Both the position numbers and the translations under genes were made by a program. Below are positions 4,513 through 26,630 of a stretch of DNA of 64,000 bases, in pieces (the first letter of the stretch is position 1; each line of letters starts with the position of its first letter). A model generated the notes under the pieces. That model saw only the letters and a program-made list of their open reading frames with translations. It did no database searches and was not told the origin of the DNA. This stretch comes from a virus: positions 1 through 64,000 of IMG/VR virus record IMGVR_UViG_3300031951_000034; one strand, given 5' to 3'.

Positions 4513-5841
4513 ATGAGAAAATTAATTTTCAACGACTCGTTTGAGTATCCAGATGCGGAGTATCTGGTCAAAATAATTGATGACCCACAGAGAAGGGATA
4601 AAATAGCTTCGTCTGTTAGACATAGCTGGGGGGACATAGAGCCAATAAAAAATCACGCAATAATTCACTTAATTGCGCTTGGATCATTCGAAAAGACCGG
4701 AAGCAATTTAAACTTTGATGCTTTTGAGGAGGAGGTTTGTAAAAAATCTCATCCAACTTTCGTGAAGAAAGCTAAATTATACAGGCATCATAATAGTAAA
4801 GTCCCACATGAGCAGAGAGATGGAGACGTAATTAAATCTGCATACAATGAAAAAATGGGAAGAGTTGAGTTAGCTATTGCCGCTAATATAGACAAATGTG
4901 CTGACTGGCTTGGCAGAGTTGAAAGAGGTGGAGATGTTAAATTTTCTATGGGCTGGCATTGCGATAATGATGTTTGCTCTATATGCGGAAATGTAAGTAA
5001 AGCCCCGTCTGAATATTGCATTCACGTCAAGAAGGCCGCTCCACATCCATTTGGTAGAAATAAGATATTGTCAGATGGTAGAAAGTGTTTTGTATATAAC
5101 AGAGAGGGGTACTGGAACGACATATCATTTGTTGATCGTGGGGCAGACATGATAGCAATGGATTTAGCTAAAATCGCTGGGTTAGACCCAAGTGAGCCAA
5201 TGGGGGGAGCTGAACTAGCAGAGCTAATAGAAAATAGGATTTTATCTACACCCAAACTAGCTATAGCTGAAAAACTTTCTAAAATTCAAAAATACATAGA
5301 TGCAGTTGGCGTTAATGCTCCAAAAAATGTTTTAGACAAAACAGATCTATCTGAATCGGCAATAAGAGAATTACAGAAAAAAAATCCAAAAGATATGTTT
5401 GGTTGCTTATCAAAGAATGCATCAATTCTTCCTTTTAGGGTTTTTTATAAACTTGCTTCTGGATCTAGGTATAATGACTTTAAAAATTTAATAGACGAAA
5501 CAGAAGATGTAATAAGTGAGTGCATAAGACTTGAACTTAAAGAGGCTTCCAGTTTAGAGCAAATTGCATCTATCCATGACTTTGATTCATCTTGTAGTGG
5601 AAATATATCCATTACACAAAACACAAAAAACGAAATAAATAAATTTATCTTATCTTCAGAAGTTCAGGACGAAAAAATAAAAAAAGCAGTTCTTTACAAT
5701 GAGGAATTAAATGATAAAAAAACTTCTATAAAGCCAGAGTCTCGTGCTATGGTAAGACAATACCTAGCTTACAAGGTTGCTGCTTTAAATGATATATCCG
5801 CTAATGATGATGTAATATTCAATGCTTTTATGTTGAATTGA
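4513..5841 (+). CDS. prohead (maturation) protease
   Basis: Directly precedes scaffold and MCP. His in LYRHHN and Ser in KFSMGW, followed by a CSICGN...YCIH Zn-finger and ISFV. This layout fits HK97/herpes-fold phage prohead proteases. Confidence 0.7.
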   Translation: MRKLIFNDSFEYPDAEYLVKIIDDPQRRDKIASSVRHSWGDIEPIKNHAIIHLIALGSFEKTGSNLNFDAFEEEVCKKSHPTFVKKAKLYRHHNSKVPHEQRDGDVIKSAYNEKMGRVELAIAANIDKCADWLGRVERGGDVKFSMGWHCDNDVCSICGNVSKAPSEYCIHVKKAAPHPFGRNKILSDGRKCFVYNREGYWNDISFVDRGADMIAMDLAKIAGLDPSEPMGGAELAELIENRILSTPKLAIAEKLSKIQKYIDAVGVNAPKNVLDKTDLSESAIRELQKKNPKDMFGCLSKNASILPFRVFYKLASGSRYNDFKNLIDETEDVISECIRLELKEASSLEQIASIHDFDSSCSGNISITQNTKNEINKFILSSEVQDEKIKKAVLYNEELNDKKTSIKPESRAMVRQYLAYKVAALNDISANDDVIFNAFMLN

Positions 5842-5902
5842 CATTCAAAAAAAGAGTGGACACAAAACTAAATACAAAATAAAATCAAAAAATATAAATA
5901 TT

Positions 5903-7597
5903 ATGAGTAAAAGAAAAGCTCCCAAATTTAACACAGTCCTTGAAGACTTTCGCAGATTCATCGGTGAATCTAAAACAGCTGAAGAGTCCCAAGGAAATAA
6001 CGAAACATCCATCTCAAAGGGCACTAGTGACTCTGAAGTAAATCAAGCTCTTCCTGGTTCTGGAAAAGCAACCGGTTCTAATTCAGACAAGGGGTTGTCC
6101 ATGGGTGTCGAAGCCACAGAAAAAGCTCCAGGAACAAAAGAGCCAACTCAAGAAGAGCGTTCCAGAAAAGAGTGTTCGCCATCTAGCAAGATTGCTGAGG
6201 ATGGTTCTGCTGCTGACCTTGTTAACAAACTTTTGAGTAATATCAAGCTTGCCACAGAAGAGCTCGAAAAACAGGCTGAAATGCCAGAGCAATTAAAGAA
6301 GGTTGTGGAAGAAAAAAAAGAGGATTCTGCTGAAGAAAAAGAAGAGTCGTCTGATGAAAAGGAAGAAGACAAGGAAGACAAGGAAGACAAAGAAGCTGCC
6401 GAAAAAAAATTAACAGAGGCTCAAAAAAAAATTGATTTAAACTCCAATGGCAAAATAGAGTCGAAAGATCTAGAAGCCCTCAGAAAAGAAGACAAACCCA
6501 AGGTTGCAGAAGATACAGTTAACACAGAAGAGGGTAAAGAAGAGGGTAAAGAAGAGGTTAAAGAAGCAAGCTCCAATGAAATAGACGAAGATGCGTTAGC
6601 GGAAAAAATTGCAATGCACTACAGAAATGTCTCTGTAGGATATGAATTAGGCAAGTTCCTGTTTAAGACCCTTGAGGATAAAATGGCTGAAGAAGCTGTA
6701 GCCCCCCAAGAAGCTCCAGAAGCTGGTTCGGCTGAAGGATCTGAGATTGAACTTATATTGCAAGCATTACAAGAATTAGTTCAAGAAGGACAAATATCAG
6801 AGGAGCAAGCACAACAGGTTTTAATGCAACTTCAATCTGCTACTGAGGGTGGCGCTGCTCCAGAAGGTGCTGCACCTGAACAGGAAGAAGCTCCAGAGGA
6901 AGCAACAGAAGAAGCTCCAGAAGAAGAAGAGCCCAAAACAGCATCTCTTTTTTCTGAAAAAGAAATAAAAGAAATTGAGACTAATATTAATAGTAAAGTA
7001 GCTGAATGGGTTTCTGAAGGCAAAACAGACAAAGAAATAACTGAACTCGTTAAGCAAGCTGCTGAAAACGATGCGAAAATTATTAACGAAAAAAAATCAG
7101 AAAAATTAGCCGCTGATGCTAATAACAGAAAGCTTGCAGCACTTGTTGAGCTTGGTTATTCGACTGAGCAAATCGAGGAATATTTCAAGACAGCACAGCA
7201 GCAAGATGAATTAAACAAAGCCATTGATAAAATGGTTTGCGATAAAGTTGCTGAGTTGAAAGAAGCTGGCAAAAATGACGCTGAAATAACTGAATACCTT
7301 AATCAAGCTGCCGTTGAGGACGCTAAATTAATTAAGTCCGCAATGGAACAAGAAAGTATCCAGGCCGCTATCTTAAATAAAGTCGCTGAAGAGAGAAAGC
7401 AAAAGATGGCCAATGTGTCTCCAGAAGTTCAACAAATCCTTCAAGCGCTTGAAGCCCTTCTTCAGTCTGGTCAGATCAGCGAAGAAGAAGCTATGCAAGT
7501 ATTACAAGAATTAGGCTTATCTGGCGGAGGAGAAGAAGCCGCTGCTGCACCAGCTGCACCCGAGGCTCAAGCTCCAGTTCCACCGCAAGCTGCTTAA
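5903..7597 (+). CDS. capsid scaffolding protein
   Basis: 564 aa, very acidic Glu/Ala/Lys-rich coiled-coil with internal repeats. Lies between protease and MCP. Confidence 0.7.
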   Translation: MSKRKAPKFNTVLEDFRRFIGESKTAEESQGNNETSISKGTSDSEVNQALPGSGKATGSNSDKGLSMGVEATEKAPGTKEPTQEERSRKECSPSSKIAEDGSAADLVNKLLSNIKLATEELEKQAEMPEQLKKVVEEKKEDSAEEKEESSDEKEEDKEDKEDKEAAEKKLTEAQKKIDLNSNGKIESKDLEALRKEDKPKVAEDTVNTEEGKEEGKEEVKEASSNEIDEDALAEKIAMHYRNVSVGYELGKFLFKTLEDKMAEEAVAPQEAPEAGSAEGSEIELILQALQELVQEGQISEEQAQQVLMQLQSATEGGAAPEGAAPEQEEAPEEATEEAPEEEEPKTASLFSEKEIKEIETNINSKVAEWVSEGKTDKEITELVKQAAENDAKIINEKKSEKLAADANNRKLAALVELGYSTEQIEEYFKTAQQQDELNKAIDKMVCDKVAELKEAGKNDAEITEYLNQAAVEDAKLIKSAMEQESIQAAILNKVAEERKQKMANVSPEVQQILQALEALLQSGQISEEEAMQVLQELGLSGGGEEAAAAPAAPEAQAPVPPQAA

Positions 7598-8684: not shown

Positions 8685-9677
8685 ATGAATACTAACATTC
8701 CAGCTAAACTTATTAATGATAAATTCATGGAGAAGATCGCCTCGAACGATCTTAATAAAGCTGCTGAGGTCGCCACAGACTTCACACGTTTAACTCTCCG
8801 TGAAGAGGGTCTTCTTCGTAAAATCCTCCCACCTCAGACAATCACTGCCGCTGAGCTCGACAAACAGCTCGATACAGATGAGCCAGTCAAGATCGTTGAC
8901 AAAGAAGTTTCGCAACCACTCTCGATGAGCGTTGGTTTTGCTACTCTTCCTAAGAATCGTATCATGAAGGGTGACAGATATCGTGTTGACTTTGCTCGCA
9001 TCCTTAGCCCAAGCTACTTCCAAGACGTTCGTAGACTTGAGCAATACGATTACGATATCCGTAACGTGTTCAAAGAAAATGCGATTAAAGATCACATGAC
9101 AGCTGAAGACGTTCCATTCTTCCAGACAGTTGACGCTATCGTCGGCAACAATGGTAATAATGTGAGCGCCGTCACAGGTAAGGTTCAATACTATGACTTC
9201 ACAAATACAGCCAAGAACCCACTTGGTATTTCGACTGGCTGGACGCGTGAAGCCCTTGTAGAATCTACAAAAATCCTTTCGAAGGGTTTTACTCCTGCTG
9301 GTGCTGCACTTGGTGCTGAGCAAACTCCTATCCGTCTTAACACTGACCTCATCGTCATGAACGTTAATACTGGACGCGAGTACCTCAAGTTCCAACACGT
9401 CAATATCGGTGATCTCTCGACTGAGTTGTTCAAGGGCGGTCTTTCGGCCACTACACTTCTCGGCCACAAGCATCTCTTCACAATGAAGGACGACATCGTC
9501 AAGGACGGCGAGGTTTATTACTTTGCTGCCCCACAATTCCTTGGCAAGTTCTACGAACTCGAACAACCAACTATGTTTGTTGATCGTCGTGCGTTCATGG
9601 TTGAGTTCTTTATCTACTCCTCGATTGGTGCCTCTATCGGTAACCCATTTGGCGTGGCTAAAGCGAAATTCTTCTAA
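8685..9677 (+). CDS. major capsid protein (HK97 fold)
   Basis: 330 aa, follows protease/scaffold/cement. Strongly biased highly-expressed codon usage and followed by a strong terminator. N-arm motif (FTRLTLREEGLLRKILPP) is MCP-like. Confidence 0.8.
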   Translation: MNTNIPAKLINDKFMEKIASNDLNKAAEVATDFTRLTLREEGLLRKILPPQTITAAELDKQLDTDEPVKIVDKEVSQPLSMSVGFATLPKNRIMKGDRYRVDFARILSPSYFQDVRRLEQYDYDIRNVFKENAIKDHMTAEDVPFFQTVDAIVGNNGNNVSAVTGKVQYYDFTNTAKNPLGISTGWTREALVESTKILSKGFTPAGAALGAEQTPIRLNTDLIVMNVNTGREYLKFQHVNIGDLSTELFKGGLSATTLLGHKHLFTMKDDIVKDGEVYYFAAPQFLGKFYELEQPTMFVDRRAFMVEFFIYSSIGASIGNPFGVAKAKFF

Positions 9678-9704: not shown

Positions 9705-9735
9705 GAGGCGGCAGAAATGCCGCCTCTTTTTTTTT
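9705..9735 (+). terminator. rho-independent terminator after MCP
   Basis: GAGGCGGCA-GAAA-TGCCGCCTC: 9-bp stem, GNRA loop, then a T run. Confidence 0.9.
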
Positions 9736-9769: not shown

Positions 9770-10300
9770 ATGAGTAAATATTCAAGCCTGTATTTAAACA
9801 AAATTGCTGAATCTATAAATGGCGAGGAAAAAAAATCTAAATCATTTAAGGAAAAAATTAAAACTTTTTTAAGAAACGTCGTGACAGGAACAGCTGCTGG
9901 AGCAGCTATCGGTGGAGGCGCTGGTTACGGATTAGCTGGACCCATTAGAGATATGACTAGCGGAATACCAGATATTCCAGGAGCTGCAATAGCTAGGGAA
10001 ATTCAAAATCCGTTATCAAATTTGAGGGGTGTAAGTATTCCAATGGGCATAGGTAGTGGAGCTATACTTGGAGCGTTAGGTGGCGCTACTCTTCCATACC
10101 TATATTCCAAGAGCGCACGCCAAAAGTTCTCAGATGAAAAACCATCTGGATTCATGACTAATATGCTTAAAGATATGACTCCTGACATAAAGAAAGATTT
10201 GGCCCCACAGGCCACTCAGGCAGACAAAAAATTCCAGGACGCCGTAAATAAATTAAAAGACAGTCACAAAAGCTTTAAAAATACATTTGGTTTAAAATAA
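9770..10300 (+). CDS. glycine-zipper small head-internal-type protein (MSKY leader)
   Basis: Start moved to the ATG at 9770 (MSKYSSLYLNKIAES). Contains GTAAGAAIGGGAGYGLAG and GIGSGAILGALGGA. Confidence 0.55.
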   Translation: MSKYSSLYLNKIAESINGEEKKSKSFKEKIKTFLRNVVTGTAAGAAIGGGAGYGLAGPIRDMTSGIPDIPGAAIAREIQNPLSNLRGVSIPMGIGSGAILGALGGATLPYLYSKSARQKFSDEKPSGFMTNMLKDMTPDIKKDLAPQATQADKKFQDAVNKLKDSHKSFKNTFGLK

Positions 10301-10306
10301 ATATAC

Positions 10307-10381
10307 TGCGGGATACAATTCTGGGAATTGGGGGGTCTCATAAGCCTCTTTAGGTGGGTTCGATTCCCACTCCCGCTACCA
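10307..10381 (+). tRNA. trnM: tRNA-Met(CAU), initiator-like
   Basis: Cloverleaf with CT-CAT-AA loop, GGTTCGATTCC T-arm and encoded CCA. The 1:72 mismatch (U:U), GCGGG/CCCGC acceptor and A11:U24 are initiator hallmarks. Confidence 0.8.
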
Positions 10382-10385
10382 TTAC

Positions 10386-10460
10386 GCCGACATAGCTCAG
10401 AGGTAGAGCTGCTGTTTTGTAAACAGCAGGTCGTTGGTTCGATTCCAACTGTCGGCTCCA
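10386..10460 (+). tRNA. trnT: tRNA-Thr(UGU)
   Basis: GCCGACA/TGTCGGC acceptor, GCTGT-TTTGTAA-ACAGC anticodon arm, encoded CCA. Confidence 0.93.
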
Positions 10461-10465
10461 TTCTC

Positions 10466-10540
10466 GTCTCCATAGTGTAATGGTCAGCACCTTTCCCTTT
10501 CACGGAAATAGTAGGGGTTCAAATCCCCTTGGAGATGCCA
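10466..10540 (+). tRNA. trnE: tRNA-Glu(UUC)
   Basis: GTCTCCA/TGGAGAT acceptor, TTTCC-CTTTCAC-GGAAA anticodon arm, encoded CCA. Confidence 0.93.
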
Positions 10541-10553
10541 ACTAACATAAAAA

Positions 10554-10973
10554 ATGAATAGAATAAACTGGGAAGAGTACGCACTACAAATAGCAGGAGT
10601 AGCTAGAACAAGAAGCGAGGATCCATGGAAAAGGGTTGGTGTATGTATTCTAGACAAAAATAATAGAGTTATTTCAACTGGCTACAATGGATTAGCTCCA
10701 GGGAAAGTAGCTCCAGATGCTTTCTGGGAAGATAGAGAAAAAAGATTGCCGCTGGTAATACATGCAGAGACAAATGCATTATCGCTTGTAAATAACGGAG
10801 AAGGTTTTTTATTGGCTTCCACTTTAATGCCATGTCCAGCTTGTGCTTTGAACATAGCTGCACACGGCATAAAAAAGGTTATATACAAAGAAGTATACCA
10901 AAGGAGCGAAGAAGCTTTAAAAATTTTTGACTTTTACAATATTGAATACAAGCATATAATAAACACTATTTAA
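10554..10973 (+). CDS. dCMP deaminase
   Basis: HAE (VIHAETNA) and PCxxC (PCPAC) zinc-deaminase motifs. N-terminal ARTRSEDPWKRVGVCI and STGYNG are typical of the family. Confidence 0.9.
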   Translation: MNRINWEEYALQIAGVARTRSEDPWKRVGVCILDKNNRVISTGYNGLAPGKVAPDAFWEDREKRLPLVIHAETNALSLVNNGEGFLLASTLMPCPACALNIAAHGIKKVIYKEVYQRSEEALKIFDFYNIEYKHIINTI

Positions 10974-11512
10974 TGAATAAGTATTCAGAAAATTATTTAA
11001 ATAAATTGATTCAATCTGGATTAAACATGGATCACTCAAGGTCTTTTGTATCTGCAGGCAATCCAGCAAATCATGGACAAATATCTCCACTACAAGCCAA
11101 GTTGCAAGAACTTGGGTTAATGAGAAGACCTAATATATCTGATTATGCTTATGAATCAATGAAAGCTAGGGGTCGTATAACTAGTAAAAATATTCCGTCT
11201 ATATTAGCTTCAAACCCAAATTTAAAAATATTTGGTGAACTAGGAAAGAATACAATTTTTCAAGCATTATTTGATGCAATAACTCCAGGTGGAAGTAGGG
11301 TTGATGCATATAAATCAAGCCTAGGAAATTCATTGGGCGGATACGGTATTAAAAATATGGAAATAAATTCTGAATTATCTAAGAATTTTTTAAATAATCT
11401 AGATTCAACTATGGCTAATTCAGACGGTCAATGGGATTACTCAAAATCTCATGGATTTAATAGATCCGAGACAGTAAATAATTTAGCTGCATTTAAAAAG
11501 AAATTTGGATAG
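10973..11512 (+). CDS. free-standing paralog of the tape-measure N-terminal domain with MNKY leader
   Basis: Residues ~47-179 align by eye to TMP residues ~81-216 (RRPNISDY/KRPTVSDY, TPGGS, DGQWDYxKSHGFNRxET, AAFxKKFG). Confidence 0.75.
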   Translation: MNKYSENYLNKLIQSGLNMDHSRSFVSAGNPANHGQISPLQAKLQELGLMRRPNISDYAYESMKARGRITSKNIPSILASNPNLKIFGELGKNTIFQALFDAITPGGSRVDAYKSSLGNSLGGYGIKNMEINSELSKNFLNNLDSTMANSDGQWDYSKSHGFNRSETVNNLAAFKKKFG

Positions 11513-11526
11513 TATAAATAAAAATT

Positions 11527-12018
11527 ATGAATAAATATGCAAATACATATATGGACTCATTATCAAAATCCATTAATGAGTATAAACCATTTAATCAAGT
11601 AGAATCAGTCGTTAAAGGACTCCCCGCTGCAGCAGCGGGTGGAGCTGGTATTGGTGCAATCCTCGGCGGATTAAGCCAAGCAGGTGATCCAGGGTACGAC
11701 AAAGATGGCAATAAAAAAAGTAGAGTCAAACAGATCCTAAAGGGCATGGCGCTTGGCGGTGCAACTGGCGGTGTTGTTGGCGGACTAGGCGCTGCAGCAA
11801 TCCCGTCCTTGTTTCAGGCAACACTTGAAGGTGGGAAAAATTTGGCAATGAAGAGTGTAGACAAAAATATTCCGAAGGACTCGATAAAAGGCAAAATTGA
11901 AAATTTCCTTAATAAGGGTAAGTTGCAAACACAAAGCGCAGTACTTTCAACTGGTATGCCGCAAATGAATGTTCAGCAACTCGGAGAAATGCTGAAATAT
12001 TATCAAGAGAATCAATAA
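11527..12018 (+). CDS. glycine-zipper small head-internal-type protein (MNKY leader)
   Basis: Starts MNKYANTYMDSLSKS. Contains AAAAGGAGIGAILGGL and GMALGGATGGVVGGLGAAA. Confidence 0.55.
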   Translation: MNKYANTYMDSLSKSINEYKPFNQVESVVKGLPAAAAGGAGIGAILGGLSQAGDPGYDKDGNKKSRVKQILKGMALGGATGGVVGGLGAAAIPSLFQATLEGGKNLAMKSVDKNIPKDSIKGKIENFLNKGKLQTQSAVLSTGMPQMNVQQLGEMLKYYQENQ

Positions 12019-12026
12019 AAAAGATA

Positions 12027-12482
12027 ATGATTCCAGAAGTCCAGATAGTAACTCCACAGGATGTGCGATTCTTTATGATGGATCGCACTGCTTCTGAAAA
12101 TTTTTTACTGGATTCAGTTGAATTTTCTGATGAGGAAATACACTCTGGTATGCAGCTGACAGTAGATAAATACAATTCAACACTGCCAATGGTTGACGTG
12201 TATACAGTTGAAAATTTTCCGTATAGGTATGAAATGATGCTCGGAACAGCTGCATCGCTGCTTAGGTCAAAGTCAATAAACTACACTAGAAATAGGTTGG
12301 ATTTTTCAACTAAGGATGGAACAACTATCCAAGATAAACAGAAGACTGGAGAATACCTATCTATTGCGAATGTAATGATGCAAGAATTTGATCAACGTGT
12401 TACACAAATAAAGAAGACCAAAAATGCTGAGCAGGCTTTTGGATTTATTTCTGGGCCATACAGCTATTTAAGACCATTCTAA
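12027..12482 (+). CDS. head-tail adaptor (connector) protein
   Basis: 151 aa, helical. DVRFFMMDR...FSDEEI pattern is typical of gp15/gp6-like adaptors. First gene of the neck cluster. Confidence 0.6.
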   Translation: MIPEVQIVTPQDVRFFMMDRTASENFLLDSVEFSDEEIHSGMQLTVDKYNSTLPMVDVYTVENFPYRYEMMLGTAASLLRSKSINYTRNRLDFSTKDGTTIQDKQKTGEYLSIANVMMQEFDQRVTQIKKTKNAEQAFGFISGPYSYLRPF

Positions 12483-12483
12483 A

Positions 12484-13257
12484 ATGGCGTTCAAATTTAC
12501 TAAATTTTGCGTATCTGCATCTACTATTCAGGGTAGCTATGATATATCATGGTTTGGAATAGGGAACGGATTATTCAGTTTTGACATAGAGTGGGGACCA
12601 AATGAAAGTGGTCCATGGAAAACATTAAAGACTGTAATTAATGTATCAGACGTTACCCTCAAGTTTACTGATAGATTATTGTCTAATACAGACCCAATAT
12701 GGTTTAGGGCTGTTGCAAAAGAAAACGGTAAAATACAGGACATAAGCGTACCAAGTTTTTATAACAATAGTTTAAATAAACAAGATTTTCTAAGGTACAG
12801 AGAAATGCTCAGAAGATGGAATATGGAACTTAAAAAGTTTTCTGGGTTACCTGGTCTATTGTTGAGGTTAAAAACATTTGGTGAGGTTGCAGACAATGTG
12901 CATCCAATATTGGGTTCACCCATTGGAACAGAGGATGAATCTGGATTGGGTAAAAAATTCAAGGGTGGCTATTGGCCTGCTATAGAAATGTACGTAGCTT
13001 ACTCAGATGCTCCACCGACTACAACGAAACAATTGTCTGTTGAGGAGACAGGAATAACAGAACAAGATAATGTTTTATTTTTTGCGATGCCGTTCCCTAT
13101 AATAAAGCCACAAGATATTTGGATTGCACCATATACTAATTCTAGATATGAAGTGAGAAAGGTTGAGGAAATAGAATTTAGGACAATGACAATAAAACAA
13201 CAAGTCTTAGCATCAAGACTCCCAATGACTGATCCTGCTCACAAAATAAAAATTTAA
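12484..13257 (+). CDS. neck / head-closure protein
   Basis: Lies between adaptor and tail terminator. N-terminal Ig/FN3-like beta pattern and C-terminal PIIKPQDIWI...RYEV stopper-like motif. Confidence 0.5.
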   Translation: MAFKFTKFCVSASTIQGSYDISWFGIGNGLFSFDIEWGPNESGPWKTLKTVINVSDVTLKFTDRLLSNTDPIWFRAVAKENGKIQDISVPSFYNNSLNKQDFLRYREMLRRWNMELKKFSGLPGLLLRLKTFGEVADNVHPILGSPIGTEDESGLGKKFKGGYWPAIEMYVAYSDAPPTTTKQLSVEETGITEQDNVLFFAMPFPIIKPQDIWIAPYTNSRYEVRKVEEIEFRTMTIKQQVLASRLPMTDPAHKIKI

Positions 13258-13259
13258 AA

Positions 13260-13940
13260 ATGGATGCAAACGACACTTTAATCTCCCCAGATGGAGTTAG
13301 GCTTTATCCAATAAAGCCGCACACAGGACACAGAATAAAAAGTCCTATATATGCAATATCTGTTTTTGTGGCCACCCTTAAGCAGTTTTTTGGTACAGAA
13401 AATAGAATATCAACTGATTTCTCTAAGTATTTATGGAAAGAAGACCAAGCAGAATCAAATGTATGGATAAGCGAAGAGCATAACGCAAATAGATCTGTTA
13501 TAGGAAAAAGACCTGCAATACTTGTTGGCATCAAGCAAATAGCATATCCACAGCAATCACTAGGTGATTATTCTTTACATGATCTACAAAATTCCACAAC
13601 TTATATGTTGAATATAGTTGAATCTGTAATAAGATTTAGATGTATATCAGAGAATATGCTATCCAGTTTAGAACTGGCTACAGAAGTAAAATATTTTGTA
13701 TCGGCGTTTGGACATCAAATATCTGAAGCTTTTTGCTTTGAGAAATTCAGAGCGTCACAGATGACCGAAACACAAAAAATAGAAGAATATAAAGAGTTTT
13801 TCGTGACAGATTTTTTATGTGAGTTAAAATATCAAGAGATATTAGGAGTAAAAACAGAAAACCTTAGGATTAAATCTGTGTTTACAAACCTAATTTACTC
13901 TGACTCTGCCAAAAAAATCTTGTCAGAACAGAAAATCTAA
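13260..13940 (+). CDS. tail terminator / completion protein
   Basis: Immediately before the sheath. Contains a KRPAILV motif and a mixed alpha/beta pattern like gpU/gp17-type proteins. Confidence 0.55.
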   Translation: MDANDTLISPDGVRLYPIKPHTGHRIKSPIYAISVFVATLKQFFGTENRISTDFSKYLWKEDQAESNVWISEEHNANRSVIGKRPAILVGIKQIAYPQQSLGDYSLHDLQNSTTYMLNIVESVIRFRCISENMLSSLELATEVKYFVSAFGHQISEAFCFEKFRASQMTETQKIEEYKEFFVTDFLCELKYQEILGVKTENLRIKSVFTNLIYSDSAKKILSEQKI

Positions 13941-13962: not shown

Positions 13963-16716
13963 ATGGCTAAAAGAACATACTTACTCCCACAGGTGATCGT
14001 TCAGCAAGATTTTGTGGCGCTCCCAGCAGCCGCTACCCAAGATCTTATTGCAGTGATCGTAGGACCCCAAAAATTGGTCAGAGACGTTAATGATCCAGAA
14101 GACGAATCTTTCGTTGATTATGGCGCATACAACAGCGTTACCGATCAAACATATAAAATTAAAGGATACACAGATTCGGATCTTCTCGAAAGAGATTCCG
14201 TTTTGCTTAACCTTAAAAACGTTACCGCTAAGTACGCTCAACTTTCTTCTCCAACAATTTCGGTTGGAAGCGTTCAAAACTTGCTTAAAATTTCCGATTC
14301 GGCTGATGGATTCGTCGCATACCCAGAAATTTCCGCAAGCAGAAATGCTGCTTTCAAGAACAGAGACGTTAAGGTTGGTGACTCTGTAGTAGTTTCTTCG
14401 GGTGGTGTCACACAACTTAAAACAAGAGTGTTTGACATTATCCGTGACAGAGTTGACGCTCAAATAGGAACAATTTCTGCTGATATCAGCAATAAATTCT
14501 ACTCCAGCAATGCTTTTTCGGTTGCAATTAATGAAGCATCTCCTGGGAGTAGATCTATCGCAGAAAGTGTTTCAAGTGATTATTCTGGAGATCTTAGGGC
14601 TGGTAGATTGGACGACACCTATACAGTTACAGTTACTGCTGGTGGAAGTGGATCTGCTGCTAAGTTTTCTGTTACAAGCTTGAATGGCGACAATGTTTCC
14701 GTTTCTTCCATCTCTGGCATTTCGCTTGCTGTCGGAACAAATGGACTTTCCATAGACTTTAGTTCTACTAATAATTTCGTTATTGGAGACTCATATGTTA
14801 TCTCGGTAGCGAAACAATTTCAGCAAAGTCTCCCATCCATTGATAACGCCGACCCAGGCAAAGATTATGCAGGGTTGTATGACACTGTATATGAGGTTGA
14901 GGTTATCAGAGGTGGAACATGGAGTCAAAGCATCGAACTTGTTGTTACGACCAATAATGCAGTTGACGCACTTCCTCCGCAAAAGCTTAACACTACCGAT
15001 GGGACATTCTTCCTTGGCTCGCTTGGTCTTGTCGGCAAGATAAACCTGATGGCAAATGCAGGCTTAAGAACTGGTGATATATTTTATATCCCTGTTGTGG
15101 CCTCCACAGCTGGCGAAGCTAGAACTATCAAGTTGCTTGATAAAATTCCATCTTCTGTAAACCCCTTATCGTCTGTTACGGTTGAGTTTTGCCACAATGT
15201 TGATTCAATAGTCATTCCACGTGCTGGTTATCCTAGACCTGGTGACAACGCTTGGTCTCTTGATGTTGATGATGAAACTGGTGAAGCTAACTTAACACTC
15301 CAGAGCGATATATATATCAACGATTCTCAGTTTACTGAGTTGAGCGGTGCATTATCGAATCTTGAGATCAAGAGCGCTAGAGTGTTTATTGGATACAAAG
15401 CCCTTCAACTTCAAAATGCACTTAGAATCAATTCTATCTCCGAACCATCGCTTATCCCAGCTCAATGCGGTAAGTTGGTCCCAGAGAACCCAATTGCTTA
15501 CGGTGTGTTAAAGGCTCTTCAAAACTCTGGTGGAACCAGAGTTTACTTTGTTCCTGTTGATGAAGACAATCTTGACGGGTATACAAGAGCTTTTGATTCT
15601 ACGCTTAATGAGGTTACTGCTTACTACATTGTTCCAATGTCGAACGATGAAAGAGTGATCCAAGCTGCTAAGGCTCACGTTGTAAGTGCGAGTGATGAAA
15701 TGGTTGCACGCGAAAGAATTGCAATCGTTAATCAATCTTTCTCGCCAACTACAATGATTTACGACAAATTAGCCGACGGTCAGACTGCATGGACTGGCTA
15801 TGTTGAAATGGCTCCTGGCACTGAACCAGCAGTCTACAACAGAGTCACGATCCCTGGTGCATCGTTACTCACAGACAGAGTTAGAGCTGGGGATACCTTC
15901 AGATCTAACTTCACTATTGATGCGTTAGGTAATGACGTCTATCAATCGTTTAAGGTTGTTGAAGTTATCGATGAGCAAACACTTAGACTTGAGTCTCCTG
16001 CATTTGCTTCTCCAGTTGGATCTGAATCCTCTCCTCGTAGAATTCAAATCGTGAGAAACTTAACCAAACGTGAACAGGCTGAAAAAATAGCTGCGTCTTC
16101 TGAAAGATTGGGCAATAGACGTGTTGTTAATGTCTGGCCAGATGTATTGAGAGACGGAGATTTATCTGTTGCTGGTTATTTTGCTGGGGCTGCTATTGCT
16201 GGATTAAAATCTGGTGTTGCTCCTCATCAACCAGTCACAAACGTTGTTATTAATGGTTTCACTAGAGCAGACAGATCGACTCCTTACTTCACAATGACCG
16301 ACCTCAACATAGTTGCTGGCGGTGGAACATGGATTATCGACCAAGACAGAAATGGTGGAGAGATATTCAATAGACACCAATTGACGACAGATTACACTGA
16401 TGACAATATGGCTGAAGTATCGATCACGACCAATCTTGACTCGATTTCCAAGTTGATCAGAGAAGATTTGAGACAATTTATTGGACAATGGAATAACCAT
16501 CCGTTCTTCCAGCAGCTCTTAAAGACAAGACTTGTTGATAGACTTACCTTCTTACAAGGCAGAGCTGTTACAGTTAAAGCTGGTCCTCAGTTGTTGAACT
16601 TCGAGATAACAAACATTGGAACTGATCCATTGATCAGAACTAGGGTCCTTGTTGACATTAATCTTACGTTGCCTTACCCAGTCAACGTGATCCAAGTTAA
16701 ACTTACTGTTATCTAA
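13963..16716 (+). CDS. contractile tail sheath protein
   Basis: 917 aa. N-terminal YLLPQVIVQQ and C-terminal sheath core (AHVVSAS...RERIAIV, AAIAGLKSG...PVTN, LTLPYPVNVIQVKL). Precedes the tube genes. Confidence 0.85.
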   Translation: MAKRTYLLPQVIVQQDFVALPAAATQDLIAVIVGPQKLVRDVNDPEDESFVDYGAYNSVTDQTYKIKGYTDSDLLERDSVLLNLKNVTAKYAQLSSPTISVGSVQNLLKISDSADGFVAYPEISASRNAAFKNRDVKVGDSVVVSSGGVTQLKTRVFDIIRDRVDAQIGTISADISNKFYSSNAFSVAINEASPGSRSIAESVSSDYSGDLRAGRLDDTYTVTVTAGGSGSAAKFSVTSLNGDNVSVSSISGISLAVGTNGLSIDFSSTNNFVIGDSYVISVAKQFQQSLPSIDNADPGKDYAGLYDTVYEVEVIRGGTWSQSIELVVTTNNAVDALPPQKLNTTDGTFFLGSLGLVGKINLMANAGLRTGDIFYIPVVASTAGEARTIKLLDKIPSSVNPLSSVTVEFCHNVDSIVIPRAGYPRPGDNAWSLDVDDETGEANLTLQSDIYINDSQFTELSGALSNLEIKSARVFIGYKALQLQNALRINSISEPSLIPAQCGKLVPENPIAYGVLKALQNSGGTRVYFVPVDEDNLDGYTRAFDSTLNEVTAYYIVPMSNDERVIQAAKAHVVSASDEMVARERIAIVNQSFSPTTMIYDKLADGQTAWTGYVEMAPGTEPAVYNRVTIPGASLLTDRVRAGDTFRSNFTIDALGNDVYQSFKVVEVIDEQTLRLESPAFASPVGSESSPRRIQIVRNLTKREQAEKIAASSERLGNRRVVNVWPDVLRDGDLSVAGYFAGAAIAGLKSGVAPHQPVTNVVINGFTRADRSTPYFTMTDLNIVAGGGTWIIDQDRNGGEIFNRHQLTTDYTDDNMAEVSITTNLDSISKLIREDLRQFIGQWNNHPFFQQLLKTRLVDRLTFLQGRAVTVKAGPQLLNFEITNIGTDPLIRTRVLVDINLTLPYPVNVIQVKLTVI

Positions 16717-16740: not shown

Positions 16741-17190
16741 ATGGCTGACATCTTTGGAAGAACAGTAGTACCAGTTGGTGGAGTTTACTCCTCGGATACG
16801 GCAGTAATGACCGTATCCGGGGCAGCTGGCTCAGGAGCTGGTGCCTTGGTCCAAAATGTTGAAGCTACATATACACAACAAGTAAACCAAATATTTGAGC
16901 TAGGATCTAATCAGGTCTACATGCAACTTGGACGTGCACAAGGTAATTTGACGATAGGAAAAATTCTTAGCAATCAAAACTTTGATAAAGCATTGTTCAA
17001 CTCTTGCGCTGGTGGGGCAACCTGTATAATACAGGCCTCCTCTGGCTGTCAGGGGCAAGGCAGCTCAAAACTAAAAGGTAAAACACTTACGGGTGTATTT
17101 GTAACTCAGTATGGAGTTTCGATGACAACTCAAGACCTTCTCATAAGAGAAAACCTCGTGGCTATGTTCACGGGGATGCAAGAATCATAA
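16741..17190 (+). CDS. tail tube protein 1
   Basis: 149-aa beta-rich protein after the sheath (LVQNVEATYTQQVNQIFELGS). Confidence 0.75.
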   Translation: MADIFGRTVVPVGGVYSSDTAVMTVSGAAGSGAGALVQNVEATYTQQVNQIFELGSNQVYMQLGRAQGNLTIGKILSNQNFDKALFNSCAGGATCIIQASSGCQGQGSSKLKGKTLTGVFVTQYGVSMTTQDLLIRENLVAMFTGMQES

Positions 17191-20811: not shown

Positions 20812-20836
20812 CCAGACAGGCCTTTTTGCGGGGTTT
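20781..20836 (+). promoter_or_regulatory. programmed -1 ribosomal frameshift signal
   Basis: A-AAT-TTT heptamer (20781-20787) in correct phase, followed after 3 nt by the hairpin AAACCCGCAAAAGG...CCTTTTTGCGGGGTTT. The -1 frame is open to 21149. Confidence 0.8.
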
Positions 20837-21206: not shown

Positions 21207-24200
21207 GTGAATCCATATAGCATATTAGATAACCAAAGGGTCCCAGGTTTTGGTGGTGGAGTGAACCCAGAAATTCCACCTGGAGTTAATTTGCCATACG
21301 GTTATCCATCGTTCTCAGCTATAGACAGAGCAAGAAATGCCGCAAACTCTGGGTTTGCACCAGCTTCGTCAATAGCTACAGGAAATCCGATGTTCGATAC
21401 GATGATAAATTTAATGATGTCATCGTTTAATGGTGGAAGGCCAATGCTAGGTACATTTAAGAGGCCAACAGTATCGGATTATCAGCAAACCTCAATGCAG
21501 GAAAGATACAGGGTTTTTGACTTAGCTAAACCATCACTACTTGCAGCAAATCCAATGTTAGCTGAATTAGGCGACATAGGACAAAATAGATTGTTCCAGG
21601 AGTTCATGGACCAATATACACCAGGCGGAAGTATGACTGATGCATTCGGCGTAGTGATGGGGAATTTTACTGAAAATATGGCTGGTCCTGGTATTAGGAA
21701 TGCAGAAGCAAATGCCATACACGCAGCAAACATAGTTAGGAATGTTAGCAATGGAATGTCAGACAAAGATGGACAGTGGGATTATTTTAAATCTCACGGT
21801 TTCAATAGAGCAGAAACATTCCAGAATATGGCTGCATTTAATAAAAAGTTTGGTGGTTATGTTGGTGAAATAACTGATCGATCACAGCAAGCAAAAGATA
21901 ATAATTTATCTAAATTAGCTGGAGAGGTATTAAAAAGGCCATCTCTTCCTTATGGTCCAACCCCACAGAGAGTACAGGAAATAGATCAGGCAAGAAAAGA
22001 TCATGCAAGGGCACAAAACATTTTATCTAACCAGACGTTAGATATACCAACTCCAAAGGTAAACGTAACAGAACCAGTTAAACTAGCTAGAGATGTTATA
22101 GAGAGAGCAGACAGAGAAGGAAAACTAACAGTAGAGGATAAAGAGGAAATATCTAAATATTCTGAAGCTCTTAATGCAATAAATACATTAAACCAGCAAA
22201 ATACTGAGAACGTTAAGAATACTGAAAATCAAGAAAATATTACTAATACTGAGAACGTTACCAATACTACAAATACCACAAACGCTACAAATAAAACAGA
22301 TAAAGTAGAAGAAATAATAAAAAAAATAGATGAAAGAGTTGGGGTAAACACCCCAGAAATGCCCGAAACGCCAGTTGAAATAGATGATACCCCAAAGTTA
22401 GATACAACTATTAATCAGGTACAAAAAATAATTGAAAAGCATGGGACTAAACAAGAGATAGAGACTTTTAATAACCAAAAGGAGACCATACTTAAGCAGT
22501 CTAAAAGATCTGTAGATATAACAGAACCATCCAAATTAGTTAGAGATGTACTGTCAAGAGCGGACCAAGAGGGAAGAATAACCGAGCAAGACGCAAATAA
22601 AATACAAGAAGAGTCACCCAAAATTATCAATGCTATTAGTAAGGTTCCGGGAACTCAACCAAGGGTAAGCACAGAATCAAGAAATAAAGCAACTAGCACT
22701 TTAGACCAACTATCTAATATTGTAGAAAAATTTGGCACAGACGACGAGAAAACTAAATTTAAGCAGGAACTACAAAAAATAAGTAAAACAGATAAAATCC
22801 TTGTAAACGATAGTATAGCTGAAAAAGAAAAAATACAAAAAAACGAAAGTGATAGATTATCTGAAATAAATTCAAATTTCTCTTCCGAGATAGAACAATT
22901 ATCTACAGAGGAAAAAAAACAAGATTTTAGGCAAAAAGTACAAGAACTTACTGGTTCAAACTTAAAGGCTATAGACAAAAAAATAGATTCCGATTTTTCG
23001 GGTATCATAGACGAGATAGAGCAACCAGAAAAGAAAGAAGAATTTAGACAAAAATTACGAAAAGTTGCTTTTTCTGATAAGGGAAAATTAAAAGAAGAAA
23101 AATCTAGTACGGAAACTCCTAGAATAGAAAATGAATTTTCTGACATCATCGGTAAAATACAGGAGCCAGAAAAGAAAAAGCAGTTCATAGAGAGTGTTAA
23201 AAAAATAAGTGAATCCAAAACAAATGAGATGGATTCAAATATAAACAAAACAATTTCAGAAACCCCTCAAATACTGGAAACACCAAAAGAGGAGCAGCAA
23301 CAAATCAAAGATAGATTTAAAAAATTCGCTGAATCATCTGCGTCAGAAAAAAGCAGCAATTCAGAAGATATATATAATCAATCCAAGTATCATGAGAAAG
23401 AATTTGCTGATATTATCAATAATCTTCCAGAGGAACAAAAACAGCAATTTAGTCAAAAAATACAAGGCTTAACTGAGTTTGGATCAAATAATATACAGGA
23501 ACAAGAACGCAAAATAAAAGAAAGTTTCCCTGAAATAATTGAAAAATTAGACACACAAGAGAAAAAACAAAATTTTGTATCTAGGGTCCAAGATATTCAA
23601 AACTATGAACAAAATAAAACATCACAACAAAAATATTCTGATACAGGTGGCTTGGATTTAATTGGAGAACTGGATTCACCAAAAGAAAAGCAAGAATTTA
23701 GTCAAAAAATGCAGGAGATAGATAGACAGTCTCCAGCGCAGAAAAGCGAAGGATTTTCATCGAAGCTTAATCCTTTTAGAGAAAAAGAGGTAAAGCAGAT
23801 AGATATAACCGCACCTACTGCTCTAGCAAAAAATGCTGTAGATAGGGCCAGAAAAAATAATATTATATCTGAGAGAGACGAGAAAGATCTTTCATATTAC
23901 TCTGACGCAAATGAGGCTATTAACACTCTTTCTTCAATGGAGGAAAGTCAAAAGGAGAAAGATAGGAACTCTAGGGTGAACGTAGCGCCTGGACAGGATC
24001 TTGATAGCCACTTATCTGAATATGAAGTTGCTATTAAAAAATACGGGACACCAGAAGAACAAAAAACTTTTGAGGAGCAAAAAAATAAGATAATTGAATC
24101 AACAACAGTTGATTTAACCGATACGGCAAAATTAGTTAAACAGGTGATGCAGAGAAAATCTGAATTACCTAAAGACGATAAAGCTAAACAAGAAAAGGCA

Positions 24201-26630
24201 AAAGAAGCTGAAAAATTAGTCAAGCAATTAGATGAAACTGGAACAGTCACAAGAAGAAATGATGAATCATTAGTTAAAACGATTGATGACGTTTCAGAGG
24301 TTGTTAATTCTATTGGGACAGAACAAGAAAAGAAAGAATTCGCCAAACAATCAAGTAGCGTAAAGAAAAAACTAGGAATACAAGAAAGCAACTCAACAAT
24401 TAGTTCTGAAAAAGAAATAGACATAAGTGATCCAACTAAGCTAGTTAGGGGAATAGTTGAAAGAGCAGATAAAGAAGGCAGAATAGGAAATAAAGAAAGA
24501 GAAGAAATATCCTCTTATACTGAGGCCGTTGACGCTTTGACAAAAGCCAAGAAACAAGAAGAAACTAAAACGAAGACAGATACAGACAAAAAATCAAGCA
24601 ATGTATCTGTGACAGGCGAAGAAAAACTTAGAGCGACATTAGATCAATTCTCAAAAATAGCTTTAAAGCTTGGCACTGAAAACGAAGTGAGACAGCTTAG
24701 ACAGCAATCAGACACTATAGTACGAGAAAATAATGACAAGGTAGAGCAGGCAAGAAATACCGAAAAAAATATAATAGAGAAATTCGGTTCAGAGAAAGAC
24801 ATAAAAGAAGCTAAAAAAATAACCGAAAATATACCAAGCTCTGGGCTACAATCTCTATCCGAGACAAGAACTCCACAGAATGCAAAAGAGCAAGACAAAC
24901 AGGTAGAAGATATAAGCGAGCTTAATAGCATGGTTAGGGAAGCTCAAAACGTTTTCGGTTCAGATACTGGTCTAGGTGAACTAATGGATAGGGTAGGAGA
25001 TCTTGTCGAGGGGGCATCAGGAATGTCTACAGGAAAGGTAAGAGACTTACTGCAAAAAATACAAGCTACCGCTGTTGTTGTTGATATGAGTAACGAAGCA
25101 ATTGCTAGGTATTTCGAAGTGACAAATGAGATGTACAAAGGAATGGGTGTGAAGGGGGGCAATCACACAAATATGGCTCAAAACGCATTAATCGCTGCAA
25201 AAGGCGTTACAGATGCAAGAAAGAAAGAAGCTCAGGCCAAGGGTGAAATGTATACAGGTGAATCTACCGAAGAAATGGCCGTTAAAATAGCTGAATACCA
25301 AGGAAGAGTGGCTAGATCATCAGAAAACCAGGATTTAGCTGCTGCACTTGCTACTCTTGGGACAGAGGGGGAAGAAGGTAGAGTAGGCCAAGAAATGAAG
25401 CAAGCAATGGACGCAGGAGACTTCAAAAAAGCCAGAGAAATAAAAGAACAAGCTATTTCATCCGGTAGAATATCCAAAAATACTGAATTGATGATGTCTA
25501 TAAGGTCAGCTGAATATGAAAAAAATGGTGGTGTATCAGAAAATGACTATAAACTTATACAGTCAAAATATGGAATGGATGGCGACTATTTCAAGAACTT
25601 GACGGGGGAAAATTATGAATTTGTCCGTAAACAAGTATACGGGAACATAGCCGACACGATACTTGGATCAAGAAATGATTCAATTTACGCCAGTACGATA
25701 GAGGAAACTGGGGTCGGGAAAGAGGGCACCGCAAAATTAAGGGAAGCTATATCAGATGGCAAAATAACACAGGAAGACATTACAGATGATAAAAAGTTAA
25801 AACAAAAAATATCTGAAATATTGCCAACAGCAAACCAAGAACAAATTCAACAAATTGCAGGGACAATTGGTACCGCATCTAACCAGGGTAATGTTGTAGA
25901 TCAATTTAAGGTAGCTGGAAGTGAAGAGGCAATGAAAGAGATAGCAAATATAAACAGGGAAAGAGCGGAAGTGGACGCGGAAGTTAAGCATGTAAATGAG
26001 ACAAGAGGTCCCTTACTCAGGGATTTTAATATAGGAGAAAAGGCAATGGGTGTGATGTCTAAGGTCTATAAGGACTTAAAAAAAGAGGGCAATGAGGACG
26101 GGCAAATTAGTTTCGAAAGCGTTGTGAGGTCGGCTAAGGGCCAACTTGGCGATTACGACAAAATGACAGCCAAAGAAAAGGAAATAGGAGAAGCTCAATT
26201 AGATTTAGTAACAGGAAAGGGTGGAAAACTTGTCGAGATGCACTCCACGGCAAAACAAGAAGCACATGAAGAAGCAGTAAAGGAAGTAGCTAAAATAGAA
26301 AAAAGCGGTACAAAATTAAGTGAAGAAACGAAAAAGAAATACACTGAAGAATACGAAAATAAAATATTCGAAGAAAAGAAAAGTAAAATAGCCGAAGAAC
26401 TTGAAAACGGAAAAGTAAAATTACAAGGAGAGGAAGCGGAAAAAGAAAAGAAAAATGATTTCGACCCCAAAAATGCATTAGATAGAATATTAACAGCATT
26501 AGAGGGAATAGCTGGTAAGCTTGGGGTTGAGACGAATAAAGCTTCTTCAAAGAGTTCTACTGGTGGGGCGGAAAGCAAAACAGAAAACAATGGATCATGG
26601 TGGAACCCATTTGATCCAAGACCAAAATAA
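21207..26630 (+). CDS. tape measure protein
   Basis: 1807 aa, helical and repeat-rich, GTG start, directly after the G/GT chaperone pair. Confidence 0.8.
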   Translation: MNPYSILDNQRVPGFGGGVNPEIPPGVNLPYGYPSFSAIDRARNAANSGFAPASSIATGNPMFDTMINLMMSSFNGGRPMLGTFKRPTVSDYQQTSMQERYRVFDLAKPSLLAANPMLAELGDIGQNRLFQEFMDQYTPGGSMTDAFGVVMGNFTENMAGPGIRNAEANAIHAANIVRNVSNGMSDKDGQWDYFKSHGFNRAETFQNMAAFNKKFGGYVGEITDRSQQAKDNNLSKLAGEVLKRPSLPYGPTPQRVQEIDQARKDHARAQNILSNQTLDIPTPKVNVTEPVKLARDVIERADREGKLTVEDKEEISKYSEALNAINTLNQQNTENVKNTENQENITNTENVTNTTNTTNATNKTDKVEEIIKKIDERVGVNTPEMPETPVEIDDTPKLDTTINQVQKIIEKHGTKQEIETFNNQKETILKQSKRSVDITEPSKLVRDVLSRADQEGRITEQDANKIQEESPKIINAISKVPGTQPRVSTESRNKATSTLDQLSNIVEKFGTDDEKTKFKQELQKISKTDKILVNDSIAEKEKIQKNESDRLSEINSNFSSEIEQLSTEEKKQDFRQKVQELTGSNLKAIDKKIDSDFSGIIDEIEQPEKKEEFRQKLRKVAFSDKGKLKEEKSSTETPRIENEFSDIIGKIQEPEKKKQFIESVKKISESKTNEMDSNINKTISETPQILETPKEEQQQIKDRFKKFAESSASEKSSNSEDIYNQSKYHEKEFADIINNLPEEQKQQFSQKIQGLTEFGSNNIQEQERKIKESFPEIIEKLDTQEKKQNFVSRVQDIQNYEQNKTSQQKYSDTGGLDLIGELDSPKEKQEFSQKMQEIDRQSPAQKSEGFSSKLNPFREKEVKQIDITAPTALAKNAVDRARKNNIISERDEKDLSYYSDANEAINTLSSMEESQKEKDRNSRVNVAPGQDLDSHLSEYEVAIKKYGTPEEQKTFEEQKNKIIESTTVDLTDTAKLVKQVMQRKSELPKDDKAKQEKAKEAEKLVKQLDETGTVTRRNDESLVKTIDDVSEVVNSIGTEQEKKEFAKQSSSVKKKLGIQESNSTISSEKEIDISDPTKLVRGIVERADKEGRIGNKEREEISSYTEAVDALTKAKKQEETKTKTDTDKKSSNVSVTGEEKLRATLDQFSKIALKLGTENEVRQLRQQSDTIVRENNDKVEQARNTEKNIIEKFGSEKDIKEAKKITENIPSSGLQSLSETRTPQNAKEQDKQVEDISELNSMVREAQNVFGSDTGLGELMDRVGDLVEGASGMSTGKVRDLLQKIQATAVVVDMSNEAIARYFEVTNEMYKGMGVKGGNHTNMAQNALIAAKGVTDARKKEAQAKGEMYTGESTEEMAVKIAEYQGRVARSSENQDLAAALATLGTEGEEGRVGQEMKQAMDAGDFKKAREIKEQAISSGRISKNTELMMSIRSAEYEKNGGVSENDYKLIQSKYGMDGDYFKNLTGENYEFVRKQVYGNIADTILGSRNDSIYASTIEETGVGKEGTAKLREAISDGKITQEDITDDKKLKQKISEILPTANQEQIQQIAGTIGTASNQGNVVDQFKVAGSEEAMKEIANINRERAEVDAEVKHVNETRGPLLRDFNIGEKAMGVMSKVYKDLKKEGNEDGQISFESVVRSAKGQLGDYDKMTAKEKEIGEAQLDLVTGKGGKLVEMHSTAKQEAHEEAVKEVAKIEKSGTKLSEETKKKYTEEYENKIFEEKKSKIAEELENGKVKLQGEEAEKEKKNDFDPKNALDRILTALEGIAGKLGVETNKASSKSSTGGAESKTENNGSWWNPFDPRPK

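Follow-up and report, generated by a model that had tools for sequence, protein, structure and literature searches.

A free-standing, leader-bearing paralogue of a tape measure N-terminal domain as a candidate packaged protein in uncultured freshwater phages

The DNA analysed here, called the window throughout, is the first 64 kb (64,000 nucleotides) of the IMG/VR virus record IMGVR_UViG_3300031951_000034, which is 131 kb long and estimated to be 73% complete. Between its major capsid and neck genes, the window contains a small gene, P0001, whose product is, on sequence grounds, certainly a paralogue of the N-terminal domain (N-domain) of the large open reading frame (ORF) P0003, very probably the tape measure protein of the same phage. 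The small protein starts with a leader of 12 amino acids (aa), which is also found on three other basic proteins encoded by this genome. The reading that we favour, tentatively and with somewhat less than an even chance of being right, is that P0001, derived from the head-end domain of the tape measure, is directed by its leader into the virion and ejected from it, in analogy with the internal proteins of phage T4.

Positions of the two paralogues and of the leader in the window.
10973..11512, + strand: free-standing gene P0001, 179 aa, starting MNKYSENYLNKL and ending KKFG, with the leader at aa 1-12, a variable linker at aa 13-29 and the helical domain resembling the tape measure N-domain at aa 30-179.
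10973..11008, + strand: leader MNKYSENYLNKL, consensus M-N-K-Y-A-[EN]-x-Y-[LIFM]-[ND]-x-[LI].
21207..26630, + strand: putative tape measure P0003, 1807 aa, GTG start, assigned from position, composition and comparison with shorter relatives.
21336..21854, + strand: N-domain of the putative tape measure (aa ~44-216), paralogous to the free-standing gene.

An earlier note on this DNA had described about 135 amino acids of the small protein as collinear with the tape measure, and pairwise alignment bore this out. BLASTP paired residues 47-179 of P0001 with residues 81-216 of P0003 (65/136 identities, 48%, E 3e-41) and MAFFT carried the homology upstream to an NPANHG / NAANSG motif, the shared module corresponding to residues ~30-179 of P0001 and ~44-216 of P0003. 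The four motif pairs quoted in the note were all present in both ORFs. Free-standing and tape-measure forms both have the NPANHG and PGGS motifs and closely resemble each other at WDY (FDF in some tape measures) and at the C-terminal F-x-K-x-FG, while a methionine-rich insertion of ~20 aa is present only in the large protein and not in P0001. It had also been proposed that the small ORF ends where the homology ends. Indeed, P0001 finishes with KKFG followed by its stop codon, the large ORF runs on through the same residues as KKFG-GY, and in the ~800-aa relatives of the large protein the N-domain likewise ends at about residue 205. As judged from these alignments, P0001 stops at a domain boundary.

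Fourteen homologues of P0001, of 179-183 aa and 47-98% identity, were recovered from public metagenomes, and a further subclade (P0020) consists of 171-aa proteins with 25 cluster members, some of them on contigs of up to 168 kb. When nine metagenome loci were compared, the free-standing gene was present wherever the region was covered (L003-L010), and the window, L007 and L010 contain the two copies side by side in one genome, the tape measure copy being located ~9.4 kb downstream in the latter two. The ratio of nonsynonymous to synonymous substitution rates (dN/dS) was 0.07 between the window and L005, with an unsaturated dS of 0.85, and 0.08-0.14 within the second clade. By these ratios the free-standing gene is functional and under purifying selection. 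This is in agreement with the proposal of the earlier note that selection, rather than a recent fragment, accounts for the conserved motifs, all the more as full-length homologues occur across relatives and form a single old clade.

When 43 N-domains were placed in a maximum-likelihood tree, the 15 free-standing ones formed a single group (support 94/94) which was recovered in 96% of the bootstrap trees. This single clade points to one duplication, which preceded the split between clades that still have 87% identity in their capsid proteins. Across the same split the free-standing protein is 46-50% identical and the tape measure N-domain 48%. A domain profile matched 44 proteins (one per 50%-identity cluster), nearly all of which are long and carry the domain at their extreme N-terminus; the tape measure location is therefore the ancestral one and the free-standing form derived. 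The isoelectric point (pI) lies between 8.6 and 9.8 in 15/15 free-standing copies, against a mean of 7.0 for the tape-measure N-domains.

No match was obtained when cultured phage records were searched by tblastn with P0001 and two ~800-aa relatives, and scans of IMG/VR with the protein and the alignment returned nothing beyond the window's own record. Likewise, neither P0001 nor P0003 nor any of ten relatives had a match in Pfam or PHROG. A limited literature search found neither a described free-standing paralogue of a tape measure domain nor this leader family. The statement in the earlier note that no such case had been described thus still stands after that search and those of the phage and Pfam/PHROG libraries.

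The domain was modelled with AlphaFold (AF2) from 47 sequences, including distant tape measures, which gave a mean predicted local distance difference test score (pLDDT) of 79.3 and a predicted template modelling score (pTM) of 0.74. Residues 30-179 form a compact bundle of eight helices with pLDDT values of 75-92 (about 88), while residues 1-29 remain below 50, with a tentative low-confidence helix at residues 5-17. A first AF2 model, based on 18 sequences, had been discarded (pLDDT 47.5). Searches with the 47-sequence model using Foldseek yielded best E values of 1.6 in PDB and 0.93 in BFVD. With VIA-align, the best Z score against 48,161 chains was 5.2, under the noise level for helical proteins; the best hit of a sequence profile search of PDB (E 0.036) was not credible, and the best score in the ESM Atlas (0.81) corresponded to unnamed viral clusters and was below a meaningful level. 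Taken together, the model describes a confidently folded, all-helical domain without detectable similarity to any solved structure, a previously undescribed domain that sits on tape measures in 44 protein clusters.

The earlier note had also recognized an MNKY leader, common to neighbouring genes, ahead of the tape-measure-like domain of P0001. A relaxed pattern based on MNKY-x3-Y-[LIMF], run against the six-frame translation of the 131-kb genome, confirmed this and returned only four matches genome-wide, all at ORF starts (9770, 10973, 11527 and 109938).

Leader-bearing proteins other than P0001.
9770..10300, + strand: basic protein of 176 aa, pI 9.8, with two glycine-zipper segments.
11527..12018, + strand: basic protein of 163 aa, pI 9.5, with two glycine-zipper segments; its orthologues adjoin the free-standing gene in L003-L010.
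109938-111227, outside the window: protein of 429 aa, pI 10.1, with two glycine-zipper segments as well as a long tail of low complexity, rich in Pro, Thr and Ser.

The four leader proteins all have a basic pI (9.5-10.1), and their bodies comprise one tape-measure-like domain and three glycine-zipper hairpin proteins. Among 27 distinct leaders from relatives, the codons TAT/TAC, AAT/AAC and AAA/AAG vary freely with the amino acids kept, and this synonymous variation indicates that selection acts on the peptide. Close relatives differ in how many leader genes they have and in how these are ordered. Since the 12-residue leader is joined to the NPANHG motif through linkers of differing length, from 5 to 18 residues, it is modular in its sequence behaviour. 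One may nevertheless suppose that the leader is not a targeting signal and that it represents either a relic of common descent or recombination among small genes, or a favoured translation start, in which case the protein would be cytoplasmic. Such an origin would suit the A/T-rich leader codons, the absence of any visible Shine-Dalgarno site 5' of the window genes, and the fact that three of the four leader proteins are related beyond the leader through their glycine-zipper hairpins. We consider it improbable, given that the peptide retains Tyr4, Tyr8 and its hydrophobic residues at positions 9, 12 and 16 while codons vary, that the variable linkers denote a module, and that most other ORFs of the window start differently.

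The internal proteins of T4 are highly basic, diverse between related phages, and share only a capsid-targeting sequence of ~10 residues, MKTYQEFIAE, in which residues 4 and 7 count for targeting and which can bring foreign proteins into the head. The leader described here resembles this sequence in being short, conserved and N-terminal, in having an aromatic side chain at position 4, and in the aromatic or hydrophobic character of positions 7-9 (MKTYQEFIAE in T4, MNKYAExYLN here). In both cases the peptide is found on small basic proteins that are unrelated in other respects, related phages differ in their set of such genes and fused cargo is tolerated, the fusions being engineered in T4 and represented here by a natural insertion of an SNF2 helicase. 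In T4 the prohead protease removes the peptide at a consensus site that scaffold and capsid proteins carry as well; the window has a protease-like gene (4513-5841), but no [LI]-x-E or other common cleavage site was found after the leader. No sequence homology to the T4 proteins was detected with PHROG and Pfam, and the cargo copies a domain of a tail protein, which is not described for T4. As the likeness is one of form only, we regard the leader proteins as analogues of the T4 internal proteins and not as members of that group.

The free-standing gene arose through a single old duplication of the globular, all-helical N-domain of the tape measure, the duplicate being joined to an amphipathic leader of ~12 residues, MNKYxxxY[LI]xx[LI]. 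This leader may be a virion-targeting tag, working like the T4 capsid-targeting sequence, that would direct otherwise unrelated basic proteins, namely P0001 and the three glycine-zipper proteins, into the particle. The tagged proteins would leave with the DNA or just ahead of it, and the tape-measure-like domain might then act in the recipient cell or its envelope beside the ejected tape measure, possibly in contact with the latter or with DNA. In at least one relative, the domain would also carry an enzyme, the SNF2 helicase. A head-packaged partner co-assembling with the tape measure end was one of the two roles put forward in the earlier note; the form of the leader, the basic charge of the leader proteins and the helicase-bearing relative make packaging plausible.

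This relative is found in locus L009, where the orthologue of P0001 (P0018, L009:9989-12172; two contigs, three sources) is 723 aa long. It consists of residues 1-166 of the family, followed in-frame by an SNF2 helicase of 542 aa and then by the last 15 residues of the family. Helicase motifs I, II, III and VI are intact, and the protein has lost neither the leader nor the domain nor the C-terminal helix. Since the helicase is nested in a fold whose C-terminal helix has been retained, the leader is not all that matters and the domain must be intact too. Among cultured phages, the insert is best matched by gp217 of Salmonella phage Arash (39% identity over 85% of the insert); no homologue of the insert was found in the window's genome, 73% complete. 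In Arash the gp217 gene adjoins a gene for an RNA polymerase subunit. Homologues of the Arash RNA polymerase were searched for in the window's genome and none was found.

Natural loading of enzymes into heads has precedents. The Dar (defence against restriction) proteins of P1 and the ejection proteins of giant phages such as SPN3US include accessory proteins and enzymes, some with helicase domains, which enter the head via N-terminal determinants and leave it with the DNA. The Arash virion preparation offers a parallel, as gp217 and RNA polymerase subunits were detected in purified virions by mass spectrometry (PMC10585845). No sequence relationship to the P1 Dar and SPN3US proteins was seen, and the L009 helicase differs from them in being nested in a tape-measure-like domain instead of being appended to a targeting peptide.

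The identity of the large ORF follows from its surroundings, with the tube genes and a tail assembly chaperone pair ahead of it and the baseplate genes behind it.

Chaperone pair upstream of the large ORF.
20254-20811 and 20826-21149, + strand: tail assembly chaperone pair, the second ORF in the -1 frame, with the slippery heptamer A_AAT_TTT at 20781-20787.

The heptamer, of the X_XXY_YYZ type, lies in the zero frame with the -1 frame open downstream, and the heptamer and -1 frame arrangement is kept in L005, L007 and L010; a -1 frameshift within the chaperone pair is thus predicted from the conserved heptamer and frames. A frameshifted chaperone pair is found before the tape measure gene in lambda (G/GT) and P2 (E/E+E'). 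The assignment of the 1807-aa ORF as the tape measure protein, which is very probable, is positional, as no curated tape measure family of Pfam or PHROG matches this ORF or ten relatives. A DUF447_C match on the large ORF was treated as spurious, being in the repeat region and without a significant single stretch.

Comparison with 41 library proteins showed that the counterparts of P0003 residues ~1-220 and of its conserved C-region (aa ~1170-1800) lie next, or nearly next, to each other in proteins of ~780-1000 aa. As the N- and C-terminal regions are adjacent in the ~780-840-aa proteins, the version found in the window carries an E/K-rich repeat insertion of ~850-950 aa, extending over aa ~290-1140 when compared with a 994-aa form and over aa ~220-1200 when compared with the ~780-800-aa forms. 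This insertion, missing from the ~780-840-aa relatives, is made of repeated units of ~40 residues, for instance the ...D(I/L)T(E/D)P(S/T)KLVR...ADKEGR... blocks and the EKK-x-F-x-QK blocks. The tape measures of the relatives vary between 766 and 1807 aa, and tails of very different lengths are therefore predicted, provided that the entire protein acts as the ruler.

Like the tape measures of other contractile tails (T4 gp29, Pakpunavirus P7-1 gp82), P0003 occupies the canonical position, is long and largely helical or charged, and varies in length among relatives. Unlike them, it has a compact globular N-domain and a free-standing paralogue, belongs to no Pfam or PHROG tape measure family, and contains neither a strongly hydrophobic segment (highest 19-residue Kyte-Doolittle mean 0.88) nor a glycine zipper. 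A non-hydrophobic tape measure next to glycine-zipper proteins bearing the leader would fit a situation in which the ejection functions are spread over separate tagged proteins. More broadly, the lineage might split the jobs of the tape measure between a tail-lumen protein and leader-tagged modules stored in the capsid, the domain being a natural carrier that would take the nested SNF2 helicase into the host by way of the tail. A myophage would then possess a distributed ejection apparatus with a modular cargo tag; we put this forward as a possible but rather doubtful extension. The residues MNPYS at the start of the tape measure were looked at as a leader likeness and judged a coincidence, since the relatives begin differently.

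The lengths of the tape measures bear on whether the small protein need be in the virion at all. A non-virion regulator of assembly would stay in the cell, where it would compete with the N-domain for the chaperone pair or the tail terminator, or prime it for them, and in this way tune tail initiation or length. The 766-1807-aa range among relatives, with insertions directly after the N-domain, the conserved chaperone pair immediately 5' of the tape measure, and a small protein that is itself conserved and under selection would agree with such a role. Nevertheless, the common leader, the basic shift and the helicase insertion would be left unexplained and no precedent was found in the limited literature search, so that we give this explanation little likelihood.

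In a solved myophage tail (P7-1 preprint), the C-terminus of the tape measure is the cork at the tail tip. The N-terminus is therefore placed at the head end in such tails, and by analogy that of the tape measure in this lineage is expected to be head-proximal. This location opens the way to a role in the neck or tail lumen, where the small protein, as a structural or assembly subunit, would dock with the N-domains of the tape measure either in the neck channel or where the tail meets the head, for instance as a plug or as an adaptor linking the tape measure to the portal channel. Its leader would then bind neck proteins instead of targeting the capsid.

Neck genes downstream of the free-standing gene.
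12027-13940: neck-type genes, matching the Arash structural proteins gp233 and gp235.

Besides the head-end position of the tape measure N-terminus in solved tails, a docking role is favoured by the location of the free-standing gene just upstream of these neck-type genes, and by the same invariant residues being kept in both paralogues, as expected with a common partner or with mutual packing. The retention of the C-terminal helix despite the helicase insertion, which indicates that the whole fold matters, is also in its favour. On the other hand, docking in the neck does not explain the presence of the leader on three glycine-zipper proteins, one of them encoded ~100 kb away, and the helicase insert of 542 aa would be hard to fit in a channel plug. 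Moreover, many relatives carry the N-domain on ~800-aa tape measures with no free-standing form among the profile matches, therefore tail assembly does not need the free-standing protein. We consider a neck partner unlikely on balance.

The possible expression signals of the free-standing gene relate to a further proposal. A promoter-like site was identified by a consensus scan, and its TATAAT is kept in a 90% relative.

Putative signal upstream of the free-standing gene.
10933..10960, + strand: promoter-like site TTTACA-16-TATAAT, with 11/12 consensus matches, 13 nt 5' of the ATG and within the 3' end of the dCMP deaminase gene.

From this sequence the free-standing gene may have its own sigma-70-like promoter. 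RNA-library contigs from four freshwater libraries cover the capsid gene, with a fall in contig depth at the terminator that follows it. Exact-match contigs of low depth from freshwater RNA libraries of two studies cover positions 11160-11357 and 11296-11491 of the free-standing gene, DNA carry-over being possible, and leave parts of it uncovered, including the first ~190 nt, which is neutral either way. Contig depth being an unreliable measure of expression, these contigs are weakly compatible with transcription of the gene. The T4 late-promoter consensus TATAAATA has 18 copies on the + strand, of which 3 are just upstream of ORFs (5903, 11527 and 109938); these copies, at 5893, 11513 and genome position 109920, start 3-11 nt before the ORFs. 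TATAAATA was rejected as a T4-type late promoter, the cases being too few and too near the ATG.

The further proposal, made in the earlier note, was that the small protein is a decoy or superinfection-exclusion factor, which would mimic the end of the tape measure so as to block related phages or distract a host defence that senses the tape measure. It is true that the mimicked domain enters the cell during infection and that the gene has a possible promoter of its own upstream; the identity of 46-50% between clades, compared with 87% for the capsid protein, could also reflect an arms race. However, the tape measure N-domain diverges equally fast (48% between clades), and the rate is therefore characteristic of the domain as such, not of a decoy. 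P0001, with a highest 19-residue hydropathy of 0.68, has neither a signal peptide nor a membrane anchor or segment, the data contain no pointer to early or lysogenic expression, and no lysogeny genes were noticed in the window, which was not systematically searched for them. The common leader and the helicase insertion would here again be unexplained. This proposal fared worst in our analysis and we hold it to be very improbable.

Regarding the genomic context, the window has a G+C content of 37.7%. Its genes succeed one another in the order protease-like gene, 564-aa ORF, major capsid, variable island, neck-type genes, sheath, two tube paralogues, 796-aa ORF, chaperone pair, 1807-aa ORF, six ORFs including a sigma-factor-like one, and baseplate J-like gene.

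Other features of the window.
4513-5841: protease-like gene.
5903-7597: 564-aa ORF.
8685..9677, + strand: major capsid protein, 330 aa, with a weak phrog_2522 match and 29% identity to the annotated major capsid protein of Arash.
9705..9726, + strand: terminator-like hairpin with a T-run, 3' of the major capsid gene, where the RNA-library contigs drop in depth.
10307-10540, + strand: tRNA-Met(CAT), tRNA-Thr(TGT) and tRNA-Glu(TTC) in tandem, between a leader gene and the dCMP deaminase gene.
10554-10973, + strand: dCMP deaminase, whose stop overlaps the start of the free-standing gene.
13963-16716, + strand: tail sheath (phrog_279), similar to the Arash and phage G sheaths.
16741-17190 and 17224-17763, + strand: two paralogous tube proteins with near-identical N-termini.
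30779: baseplate J-like gene, ~4 kb 3' of the 1807-aa ORF.

The earlier note had assigned the free-standing gene to the head cluster. The gene does lie between the major capsid and the neck genes, but this interval is a variable island with three tRNAs and a dCMP deaminase gene, so that its position is not sufficient to class it as a head gene. The second clade carries in this island a ferritin-like/DUF5856-like ORF of 201-208 aa between the dCMP deaminase gene and the free-standing gene (L007:9373-9999, L009:9391-9996), which the window lacks. On the RNA-library contigs, tRNA-like loose ends were seen at the tRNA trio (10307-10540). The number of tube genes also varies, with two in the window and L005 and one in L007, L009, L010 and L011. 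The sigma-factor-like gene (29196-29909; Sigma70_r3, phrog_351) is located between the tape measure and baseplate genes. Arash is the nearest cultured relative through the sheath, capsid, protease-like and neck genes, with identities of 24-35%; by these comparisons no cultured phage is more than a remote relative of the phage studied here, whose lineage is one of uncultured freshwater phages with genomes of ~170 kb.

Several points weigh against packaging and ejection of P0001. Packaging is argued from analogy with T4. To pass the tail tube, a folded domain of 150 residues, and even more so the 720-residue helicase fusion, would probably need unfolding, and the fold searches yielded no functional clue. 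The gene is located in an island 3' of the capsid terminator and has a possible promoter of its own, so its position ties it neither to head assembly nor to late expression. No cleavage motif common to all leaders was found after the conserved 12 residues; K-x-A follows some of them (9770, 109938 and P0020 of a relative) and is absent after the leader of P0001, and it was discarded as a general cleavage site for this reason. Finally, the list of Arash virion proteins that includes gp217 comprises 116 proteins, and its authors allow for carry-over of abundant enzymes (PMC10585845).

Leader-directed packaging, as we propose it for P0001, would have several consequences for these phages. If the leader is a loading tag, it would constitute a second, independently recognisable system of the T4 style, in which one tag serves many cargoes. 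If the proposal is true, a domain of a tail protein could be recruited as injected cargo and as an enzyme carrier. This would bear on how long-tailed phages move proteins and DNA across the envelope, and on the engineering of particles that carry proteins.

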